The notes beneath the pieces are model-generated. The model was not told where the DNA came from. It saw nothing but the letters and a program-made list of their open reading frames with translations, and ran no database searches. This document shows, piece by piece, positions 25,080 through 27,838 of a stretch of DNA of 64,000 bases. Position 1 is the first letter of the stretch; each line of letters begins with the position of its first letter. The position numbers and the translations under genes were made by a program. The stretch comes from Eledone cirrhosa (Eukaryota), in the NCBI GenBank assembly GCA_964016885.1, contig OZ024758.1, positions 9,486,001 through 9,550,000 on the forward strand, in the 5' to 3' direction.

Positions 25080-25110
<31 letters not shown>

Positions 25111-25382
25111 CAAGAACTGTTAAAAGGGAGATTGAATTCCTCAGAGTGAACGGCCATCTACTCCAACGATGGGTTGAATAACCTCACTAACTCGCAATTG
25201 GCCAAGTGGGGGTGAGTACGGCTACGTTCCTGACATGACGAAAAGGAAACAGAAAGCGGAGGAGGTCAACCGGGTGGGTTCTTCCAGCAGGAATGAGAAG
25301 GCCCTGGATTGGACTGGATTATATTGCTAGGATAGCATACCATTGATTGTCATACATACGTTCTACTTTATACTATTAGTAA

Positions 25383-27041
25383 GTGGATTGGCAGAATCGG
25401 TAGAGGGTCGGACGCCATGCTAGGGCGGTGGATTGGCAGTATCGGTAGAGGGTCGGACGCCATGCTAGGGCGGTGGATTGGCAGTATCGGTAGAGGGTCG
25501 GACGCCATGCTAGGGCGGTGGATTGGCAGTATCGGTAGAGGGTCGGACGCCATGCTAGGGCGGTGGATTGGCAGTATCGGTGGAGGGTCGGACGCCATGC
25601 TAGGGCGGTGGATTGGCAGTATCGGTAGAGGGTCGGACGCCATGCTAGGGCGGTGGATTGGCAGTATCGGTAGAGGGTCGGACGCCATGCTAGGGTGGTG
25701 GATTGGCAGTATCGGTAGAGGGTCGGACGCCATGTTAGGGTGGTGGATTGGCAGTATCTGTAGAGGGTCGGACGCCATGCTAGGGTGGTGGATTGGCAGT
25801 ATCGGTAGAGGGTCGGACGCCATGCTAGGGTGGTGGATTGGCAGTATCGGTAGAGGGTCGGACGCCATGTTAGGGTGGTGGATTGGCAGTATCGGTAGAG
25901 GGTCGGACGCCATGTTAGGGTGGTGGATTGGCAGTATCGGAAGAGGGTCGGACGCCATGTTAGGGTGGTGGATTGGCAGTATCAGTAGAGGGTCGGACGC
26001 CATGTTAGGGTGGTGGATTGGCAGTATCGGTAGAGGGTCGGACGCCATGTTAGGGTGGTGGATTGGCAGTATCTGTAGAGGGTCGGACGCCATGCTAGGG
26101 CGGTGGATTGGCAGTATCGGTAGAGGGTCGGACGCCATGCTAGGGCGGTGGATTGGCAGTATCGGTAGAGGGTCGGACGCCATGCTAGGGTGGTGGATTG
26201 GCAGTATCGGTAGAGGGTCGGACGCCATGCTAGGGTGGTGGATTGGCAGTATCTGTAGAGGGTCGGACGCCATGCTAGGGTGGTGGATTGGCAGTATCGG
26301 TAGAGGGTCGGACGCCATGTTAGGGCGGTGGATTGGCAGTATCGGTAGAGGGTCGGACGCCATGCTAGGGCGGTGGATTGGCAGTATCGGTAGAGGGTCG
26401 GACGCCATGCTAGGGCGATGGATTGGCAGTATCGGTAGAGGGTCGGACGCCATGTTAGGGTGGTGGATTGGCAGTATCTGTAGAGGGTCGGACGCCATGC
26501 TAGGGCGGTGGATTGGCAGTATCGGTAGAGGGTCGGACGCCATGCTAGGGCGGTGGATTGGCAGTATCGGTAGAGGGTCGGACGCCATGCTAGGGCGGTG
26601 GATTGGCAGTATCGGTAGAGGGTCGGACGCCATGCTAGGGCGATGGATTGGCAGTATCGGTAGAGGGTCGGACGCCATGCTAGGGCGGTGGCTTGGCAGT
26701 ATCGGTAGAGGGTCGGACGCCATGCTAGGGCGGTGGCTTGGCAGTATCGGTAGAGGGTCGGACGCCATGCTAGGGCGGTGGATTGGCAGTATCGGTAGAG
26801 GGTCGGACGCCATGCTAGGGCGGTGGATTGGCAGTATCGGTAGAGGGTCGGACGCCATGCTAGGGTGGTGGATTGGCAGTATCGGTAGAGGGTCGGACGC
26901 CATGCTAGGGTGGTGGATTGGCAGTATCGGTAGAGGGTCGGACGCCATGCTAGGGTGGTGGATTGGCAGTATCGGTAGAGGGTCGGACACCATGCTAGGG
27001 CAGTGGATTGGCAGTATCGGTAGAGGGTCGGACGCCATGCT
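25383..27041 (+). repeat. 37 tandem copies of the first 45 nt of SINE family A
   Basis: Unit AGGGCGGTGGATTGGCAGTATCGGTAGAGGGTCGGACGCCATGCT, exact 45-bp period from 25411 to 27031. Confidence 0.97.
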
Positions 27042-27190
27042 TTCCAGCATAGTTACGTCCCTTTACGATCTGAGTTCAAATCCCGCCGAGGTTGACTTTG
27101 CCTTTCATCCTTACGGGGTCGATAAAATAAAATACCAGTAATGCACTGGTGTATTGCTGGCCTTGTGCCTAACGTAGAAACAATTATTAG
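26997..27190 (+). mobile_element. SINE family A body continuing from last array unit
   Basis: B box, Nin-like domain, tail; TSD TATTAGTAAGT at 25374-25384 and 27185-27195. Confidence 0.9.
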
Positions 27191-27838
27191 TAAGTATATA
27201 TATATAAGTAGAAGGTATCATCATCATCATCATCATCCTCGTGGAAAGTGGACGTTAAACGAGGATGATGATGATGATAATACCTTTTACTGTGAGTGGC
27301 CATATCATTTATACTGTTGGTATTATATCATTAGTCACAATTATTGACTGCCGCAGCCGTTCAAAACGACAGGTGAAACTATTCATACATTATTCGCCTA
27401 AAGACTTATCACTTTCCATTGAATAGTAAACATTTAATACCAATAATTTATAAATATCATACTGCATACCACTCGTTGAAAATGATAGATAACAGCGGTG
27501 ATTAAATTTCACAATCACTCGTTTCATGTTAAATGAACATTTGTGTGTGTGTGTGTGTTTTTTTACTGGTCCATTGAACGGTTTACTAATAGTTATAGTA
27601 GCTGTTCCTTAAGATACACTTTCAATAGAAAGAAGAGTAGAAATATCCAGCAAAGTTTGTGAAATCACTGTCTTAAGTTATGCCATTCTCCTCCATCTAC
27701 ATTTCTCTCTTTATATCTATATTTTTTAATGTGTATCACAATATAGATATAATGTCAATTTCATTTCATCAAAAGATTTTTTTTTTTAGTAAACTTGTAA
27801 GATCGTACGTGTGTGTATGTATAACTATATGTCTGTAA

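Follow-up and report, generated by a model that had tools for sequence, protein, structure and literature searches.

Within a 64,000-nucleotide stretch of the genome of Eledone cirrhosa (the window, C19:9,486,001-9,550,000 of a 3.0-Gb assembly, contig OZ024758.1, whose own numbering is used below), the first 45 nucleotides (nt) of a short interspersed nuclear element (SINE) are repeated in tandem ahead of a single SINE body, and the whole lies inside one target-site duplication (TSD). We read this array, tentatively, as one of at least 357 SINE-head satellites that reside in TSD-flanked SINEs and whose units were made after insertion by copying at the DNA level, not by 37 jumps of a reverse transcriptase (RT). 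A preliminary description of the window had offered two origins for the units, namely, in target-primed reverse transcription (TPRT), reiterated template jumping from the RNA 5′ end and, alternatively, later expansion of a seed duplication. Reiterated jumping at this insertion is contradicted by rare variants shared among units, by units younger than the body, by junction haplotypes shared between loci and by the restriction of arrays to distal chromosome regions. The jump itself keeps a part as a possible source of the primordial junction between units, once or a few times in the genome and not once per unit at this locus.

Tandem Repeats Finder (TRF) reports one array at 25383-27041, with a period of 45, 36.9 copies, 97% matches, 0% indels and a score of 3052. 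When the register is set from the join between repeated and non-repeated SINE sequence (…CCATGCT/TTCCAGCAT at 27041/27042), the assembly contains 37 head-to-tail, indel-free units of 45 bp at 25385-27041 (Table 1). The structure as a whole holds one SINE body only (27042-27184), the 3′ tail of which, …GTAGAAACAAT, directly adjoins the 3′ copy of the TSD TATTAGTAAGT. The unit is SINE nt 1-45, because both TSD-flanked full-length copies in the window start with AGGGCGGTGG; its start is defined to within one base, since the leading A is ambiguous in one of these copies. The first unit reads TAGTAAGT where full units have AGGGCGGT, and is thus clipped to about unit position 9, with the GT at its join common to unit and TSD. 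On all these counts the preliminary description was accurate: 37 reiterations of a SINE head lie in a single TSD, the first unit is 5′-clipped, the last runs into a full body, indels are absent and only one B-box-like motif is present. The array is also, as it proposed, a satellite born from a SINE head, its units being identical to SINE nt 1-45. Open reading frames (ORFs) of 574 amino acids (25417-27141, + strand) and 560 amino acids (25368-27050, - strand) traverse the array only because 45 bp make 15 codons without a stop, and do not point to a gene.

The units of the window array differ from one another at few positions. C5T is present in 16 units, C44T in 8, G23T in 4, G7A in 2 and A11C in 2 adjacent units, and there are five singletons. 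C5T occurs in blocks (units 8-16, 19-21 and 34-36), and the rare transversion G23T is found in the non-adjacent units 9, 16, 20 and 25, in three of the four cases directly after a T44 unit. This pattern of G23T, C5T blocks and the A11C pair marks segmental duplication inside the array. At positions 12-43 the units differ at 8 of 1,152 sites, whereas the body has private differences at 4 of 142, scored against its subfamily, the other members of which are 98% identical. The units are therefore roughly fourfold less diverged than their own SINE body, which indicates that most of them are younger than the insertion. The recurrence of rare variants in blocks and this difference in age bear out the later expansion that had been put forward as the second origin.

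The locus is not a one-off. Its unit junction, in which nt 45 is followed by nt 1 (45/1; GCCATGYTAGGGYGGTGGATTGG), occurs 5,948 times in the genome, and the reversed control does not occur at all. A pattern search found at least 357 arrays of the form unit-unit-body start and at least 11,807 full heads without a preceding unit (hereafter single heads), so that about 3% of intact heads bear an array. The search for other tandem-head loci that the preliminary description had called for returned many, with a common 45/1 boundary and a rarer boundary at 50/1. All ten arrays at C1:0-6.5 Mb (C1, C2 and so on denote chromosomes) end 3′ in exactly one SINE body, and range from 11 units to about 60 kb. 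At C1:3,016,000-3,084,000, head arrays number hundreds to more than 1,000 units (about 60 kb) and at least two SINE bodies stand where arrays end; the unit consensus there (T5, C22T, G34T, G38A) agrees with that of most other arrays at C1:1.3-5.3 Mb.

Both boundaries coincide with features of a predicted RNA structure. Folding of the SINE RNA (26997-27184) gives a predicted minimum free energy of -61.8 kcal/mol (z = -2.46), and nt 45 is the last base of the 5′ arm of a predicted apical hairpin, AUGCU-UUCC-AGCAU. Units of the rarer 50/1 class (…CATGCTTTGTA/AGGG; C2:21.85-21.88 Mb and C2:18.81 Mb, at C2:18,808,599) have a 50-bp period and span approximately nt 1-50, ending at the other edge of the predicted hairpin loop. 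Some arrays mix 45- and 50-nt spacing, for example L138 at C2:20.272 Mb. The 50-bp class occupies a block exceeding 25 kb at C2:21,853,000-21,878,000, where matches recur at a spacing of about 5.45 kb.

For a detailed sample, 70 arrays among the matches listed were fetched and parsed in genome order, which together with the window array gives 71 loci. Two of the 70 (L090 and L112) are single heads whose TSD ends CATGYT, about the number expected by chance. Among the remaining 68, three of which extend past the fetched DNA and so have incomplete sizes, two units is the commonest size (17 arrays); nine arrays have three units, 34 have five or fewer, 27 have at least ten and 15 have at least 20, the largest reaching 48 or more. 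A TSD and a clean phase could be assigned in 34 of the 71 loci; of these, 30 have a first unit beginning at unit position 1-14 and three have one beginning at 44-45, that is, with one or two extra bases. Deep clipping of the first unit (positions 15-43) affects roughly 3 of 60 arrays, whereas among single copies extending to nt 46 the figure is roughly 16 of 62; these counts are rough, because the number of array-attached copies to be subtracted was estimated. The complete AGGGCGGT is present in every internal unit and often missing from the first, as in the window and at C1:1.30, 1.47 and 5.02 Mb, where each array has a clear TSD despite its clipped first unit. Because AGGGCGGT is present inside and missing from the first unit, duplication of the clipped insertion cannot yield the internal units. 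The template that supplied the missing 5′ bases must therefore have had an intact SINE 5′ end, and was either RNA or cDNA, or another array. Unit subvariants alternate in arrays L084 and L048, and the unit type C16G+T44 has four occurrences genome-wide, all in one five-unit array.

Junction variants behave as a genome-wide set of inherited haplotypes that is common to many loci. The identity of nt 44 in internal units is nearly all-or-none within an array: it is T in 27/27, 32/32, 11/11 and 12/12 units of some arrays and C in 20/20, 17/17, 17/17 and 16/16 internal units of others. The body-attached unit, meanwhile, keeps C44 in all but 3 of 66 arrays. At the terminal junction of 69 arrays, nt 44 of the penultimate unit and nt 5 of the last unit combine as CC in 14, CT in 28, TC in 18 and TT in 9, which amounts to a negative association (odds ratio 0.25, p = 0.013). 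This spectrum is the same in arrays of two or three units as in larger ones (p = 0.62). Compared with listed single heads counted by hand, small arrays more often carry T5 (15/27 versus 17/100) and T44 (9/27 versus 3/100), and T44 shows no dependence on the main body subfamily (15/38 versus 11/28). The junction dinucleotide, also counted by hand in 44 listed loci, is CT in 28, TT in 9, GT in 4, and TA, TG and AT in one each; all four G44 (GT) loci lie at C1:3.1-5.0 Mb.

Unit sequences are shared regionally as well. According to TRF consensus units, T5, C22T, G34T and G38A are common to 10 of the 12 arrays at C1:1.3-5.3 Mb, although these arrays differ in TSD and carry both CC-type and GC-type bodies; among 35 random single heads, G34T is found in one. 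Because junction haplotypes and this regional consensus are shared, arrays at different sites are related via their units and not via their host SINEs. Every body type carries arrays, in proportions close to those of single heads (a partly manual count), and the closest relatives of the window copy by body sequence have one head in 11 of 11 cases. In arrays of two or three units, the body-attached head shares 12 of its 22 variants with its neighbour, versus 9% for random pairs. Two more specific signs of kinship were considered and rejected. The T5+T23 unit type of the window recurs eight times in an array at C6:3.84 Mb, but is read as recurrent mutation and not as a parent-offspring mark, because that CpG has changed in many different ways in the C6 array and the order of unit types is not shared. 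The arrays at C2:20.27 and C2:20.49 Mb, two candidates for segmental duplicates that differ in unit number, have array sequence in common but not flanks.

Arrays also differ from single heads in where they lie. Position was assessed for 67 listed arrays on the four large chromosomes C1-C4 (379-443 Mb), and 63 of them fall in the outer half of their arm (binomial p = 1e-14). Arrays of 2-3 units show this bias as much as those of at least 20, and the median distance to the chromosome end is 13-27 Mb in every size class, that of 2-3 units included. By comparison, the single heads most closely related to the window's body are split evenly, with 11 of 22 in the outer half, and their median distance to the end is 105 Mb. 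There are 11 arrays per 100 single heads at C1:0-48 Mb, and no array at C1:48-388 Mb among the matches listed. The window array is situated at 9.5 Mb of a 40.2-Mb chromosome. The four inner-half arrays (L105-L108) are grouped together at C4:164-205 Mb, a group that could mark an internal region with distal-like properties, for example an old fusion point.

The age difference seen in the window recurs elsewhere. In array-bearing SINEs the bodies show 707 differences in 9,542 sites (7.4%), and the body-attached heads, scored at positions not used for ascertainment, show 72 in 1,904 (3.8%). Ten single-head copies passed through the same filter have bodies at 5.4% and heads at 7.1%, and the contrast with arrays is significant (p = 0.0013). 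Several arrays resemble L076, in which units with 0 differences in 256 sites stand beside a body with 10 in 142. Array size and host-body divergence are not correlated (rho = 0.03).

According to the reading that we tentatively favour, array sequence from a genome-wide pool would be copied into the head of a resident SINE by homology-dependent repair, whether through ectopic gene conversion, synthesis-dependent strand annealing or the integration of circles derived from arrays. The recipient would usually be near-full-length, because homology is needed and near-complete heads would thus be preferred, and it would keep its own clipped 5′ edge, nt 44-45, body and TSD. The array would then grow or shrink by unequal exchange, and arrays within one region would homogenize with each other. 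The primordial 45/1 junction, like the rarer 50/1 junction, would have arisen once or a few times on an RNA or cDNA intermediate, an origin suggested by a unit that spans the first base of the SINE to the edge of the predicted hairpin loop. Possibly this junction was made by an RT jump from the RNA 5′ end, which is its most natural source because the unit starts at SINE nt 1. We propose, with reserve, that the 45-bp head array may spread by invading resident SINE heads via short-homology repair in recombination-active distal regions.

Several points weigh against this reading. On the body side no more than 45 bp of homology is available, a short stretch for homologous repair, and we saw neither a recipient/donor pair nor an allele of an array locus occupied by a single head; for these two reasons our confidence in copying into resident heads at the DNA level stays somewhat below even. 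The sharing of head variants in arrays of two or three units (12/22) is the outcome expected from copying one RNA, and fits DNA-level copying only if partner choice is mismatch-sensitive or the neighbour converts the terminal head. In the window itself the body is a young, ordinary subfamily member, and the youth of the array rests on the fourfold divergence contrast. The controls drawn from single heads comprise few copies (22, 35 and 10), and some of the counts are manual. Finally, location-dependent loss of arrays could produce the distal restriction.

Much of the structure could also be obtained if RT, on reaching the RNA 5′ end during TPRT, had jumped back to nt 45 a single time or a few times at each locus and the product had then expanded in situ, a weaker form of the jumping put forward in the preliminary description that we regard as unlikely. 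In its favour, it explains why the unit begins at SINE nt 1, why internal units have a complete AGGGCGGT when duplication of a clipped copy cannot make the junction, and why the structure is bounded by a TSD. Two units as the commonest size (17/68) and the excess of shared head variants in small arrays (12/22 versus 9%) also speak for it. Non-LTR (long terminal repeat) reverse transcriptases add non-templated bases at jumps, and such bases would fit the hypervariability of nt 44/45, transversions included. No special master would be needed, because the window's closest body relatives are all single-headed (11/11). However, jumps at each locus predict a spread like that of single heads, whereas 63 of 67 arrays are distal, those of 2-3 units included; they predict T5 at its background level, whereas small arrays have it in 15/27 versus 17/100 single heads; and they predict independent junctions, whereas nt 44 is all-or-none per array and G44 is regionally clustered. 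Heads should be as old as bodies but are about half as diverged, and deep clipping of the first unit should be as frequent as in single copies but is rarer in arrays. Neither the negative nt 44/nt 5 association nor the regional unit haplotypes are accounted for, and in the window the units share rare variants and are about four times less diverged than the body.

Inheritance of junctions would follow directly if multi-head SINEs acted as heritable masters, transcribed from an upstream head and retrotransposed as RNA in the manner of mouse L1 5′ monomers. One shared junction, shared haplotypes, an all-or-none nt 44 and a TSD for each array would be expected from such masters; first units do end near the expected transcription start, and the units lack the run of four T at which RNA polymerase III (Pol III) ends transcription and which would stop it here. 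We nevertheless consider such masters improbable. Junction haplotypes are independent of body subfamily (T44 in 15/38 versus 11/28), arrays occur on all body types, with array-bearing bodies appearing scattered among single-head bodies, and the window's nearest body relatives are single-headed (11/11). Masters give no reason for distal restriction, younger heads or regional unit haplotypes, and arrays of 60 kb cannot be transcripts. The predicted hairpin lends itself to a further route, in which a break in the hairpin of a resident SINE is repaired from RNA: the bottom strand would prime at nt 46, be extended to the RNA 5′ end and be re-joined, so that each event adds nt 1-45. This would give the 45/1 junction together with damage at nt 44-45 of the upstream unit; a dependence on break frequency could account for the distal bias, and the units end at the predicted hairpin apex, with the second class at nt 50, the other loop edge. 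Fresh junctions, however, give no shared haplotypes, T5 enrichment or all-or-none nt 44, and a transcript of the clipped copy itself would not begin with AGGGCGGT, so that we rate this route as very improbable. That the copy number or structure of the window array is an assembly artefact is scarcely credible, given that the internal variant pattern is ordered and non-periodic, that the array is delimited by a TSD and unique flanks, and that the genome has hundreds of loci like it. Two other RNA-based routes were rejected. Rolling-circle reverse transcription of a 45-nt circular template would leave array 5′ ends in random phase, yet they are concentrated at unit positions 1-14, and the all-or-none state of nt 44 in each array contradicts concatenation of separate 45-nt RNA pieces.

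Table 1. Components of the array locus and the two full-length SINE copies that define its unit (window positions)
Feature	Position	Strand	Basis
5′ TSD copy TATTAGTAAGT, 11 bp	25374..25384	+	read directly; identical to 27185-27195
First head unit, 5′-clipped, about unit positions 9-45; private T19A	25385..25421	+	register analysis
36 full 45-bp units (AGGGCGG…CCATGCT)	25422..27041	+	TRF and register analysis
Predicted apical hairpin ATGCT-TTCC-AGCAT of SINE RNA	27037..27050	+	RNA fold, prediction
Single SINE body, nt 46-188	27042..27184	+	98% identical to many single-head copies elsewhere
B-box-like GAGTTCAAATCC inside body	27072-27083	+	motif resemblance
3′ TSD copy TATTAGTAAGT	27185..27195	+	read directly
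Full-length single-head SINE copy, own TSD, defines nt 1	3106..3293	-	BLAST, TSD
Full-length single-head SINE copy, own TSD, defines nt 1; T at nt 44	56197..56384	+	BLAST, TSD

The host SINE is a dispersed element of 188 bp, with 18 further matches in the window (BLAST of the last unit plus body). Its copies have TSDs and variable 5′ truncation, and at least 11,807 in the genome are full length. TGGCAGTATCGG and GAGTTCAAATCC resemble, at the level of motifs, the consensus Pol III A box and B box, respectively. ARAGORN predicts no tRNA genes in the window and a full SINE copy has no match in Rfam at E≤10, so that neither program supports a tRNA-like head, and a search for the SINE sequence in the texts of published papers returned no match. 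In loci L048-L129 and the window copies, nearly all TSDs begin with TAT(T), continuing the SINE tail …ACAAT, which suggests that the RNA 3′ end may pair with the nicked target. Several SINEs are inserted right behind the tail of another copy (L121, L126).

The window is unusually rich in other tandem arrays, and this suggests that the region is prone to tandem expansion. They are located at 7612-8365 (28 bp x 27), 12647-13840 (49/98 bp x 21), 30249-31193 (35 bp x 27) and 58041-58377 (37 bp x 9), and a 3-kb (TA)n tract at 3492-6559 adjoins the SINE copy at 3106-3293. Just past the 3′ TSD, an inverted repeat at 27212-27288 has arms of about 27 nt, (ATC)n…CCTCG and CGAGG…(GAT)n, and an 18-nt loop. 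The 5′ flank of the insertion (25100-25320) belongs to another dispersed repeat, with 1,531 candidate matches of which the best others are about 80-83% identical; at 100% identity the flank is unique, and a second haplotype of the locus, sought in the assembly, was not found. On the + strand, an ORF of 744 amino acids at 37573-39807 encodes a reverse-transcriptase domain (RVT_1, E = 4.6e-30) with a PHD finger after it and resembles a long interspersed nuclear element (LINE). No similarity to the SINE tail was seen beside this ORF, and it is not established as the partner LINE.

The organization of these loci recalls several known systems, each in part. Mouse L1 elements carry tandem promoter-bearing 5′ monomers, the outermost usually truncated, upstream of one body, and these are inherited through retrotransposition. 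The arrays described here likewise have tandem 5′ units, a clipped outermost unit and a single downstream body, but inheritance through RNA is disfavoured because array type does not track body lineage. Template jumping by non-LTR reverse transcriptases yields U6/L1 chimeras and, in the case of R2, end-to-end products; these share with our loci a junction at the RNA 5′ end, a single TSD and variable junction-adjacent bases. Such chimeras are, however, independent one-off joins between different RNAs that spread like other insertions, whereas the junctions here are shared by descent and regionally clustered. Subtelomeric minisatellites, with units of 10-100 bp, distal clustering, interspersed variant repeats and turnover by unequal exchange or conversion, are similar in all these respects. 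The difference is that all arrays in this genome share one unit and each is embedded in a copy of one dispersed SINE.

The closest known parallel is offered by the SINE-derived satellites of squamates (Vassetzky, Kosushkin and Ryskov 2023; PMC10702118). In both cases, as far as the consulted portions of that article describe, the tandem unit is a portion of a SINE (here nt 1-45), a longer terminal unit reaches the SINE terminus (here the body at 27042-27184), subvariants alternate in a locus-specific way and chromosome ends are preferred (here 63 of 67 arrays in the outer arm half). The scale is comparable too, with hundreds to thousands of loci of 2 to about 1,000 units in squamates and at least 357 loci of two units to about 60 kb here. 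Squamate units are, in contrast, 67-215 nt long and mostly internal or 3′ SINE parts (PMC10702118). Their authors propose initial duplication by unequal homologous recombination and state that the existence of such satellites outside squamates was unknown, and a look-up of terms in the consulted text finds TSDs, reverse transcription and template switching not mentioned (PMC10702118). In the blood clam, the consulted part of a second source describes tandem-like TSD1-(SINE)n-TSD1 structures, which resemble the present form in placing several SINE-derived repeats, truncated at fixed positions, in a single TSD (PMC11481361). There the repeat is most of the SINE with a truncated head and tail, and here it is the 45-nt head only; there a complete head comes first and a complete tail last in arrays of 4-15 units, and here arrays extend to tens of kilobases (PMC11481361). 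Our literature search, which covered main texts, found no description of a head-only array inside a TSD or of satellite spread into resident SINEs.

The birth of satellites from dispersed repeats and their arrival at new loci pose a long-standing open question. Because the arrays of this genome are still bounded by the TSD, clipped edge and body of their hosts, the age of the host, the age of the array, the type of junction and the chromosomal position can each be read on their own at hundreds of loci. The data separate the origin of the junction (probably an RNA 5′ end) from the distribution of arrays (distal, with a shared junction library) and from their growth (in-situ duplication). If arrays do invade resident heads, the thousands of dispersed SINE heads would be landing pads, and satellite loci could be seeded without transposition of an array. 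This would be a concrete and testable route of satellite dispersal, and it would also account for the gathering of squamate SINE-derived satellites near chromosome ends.

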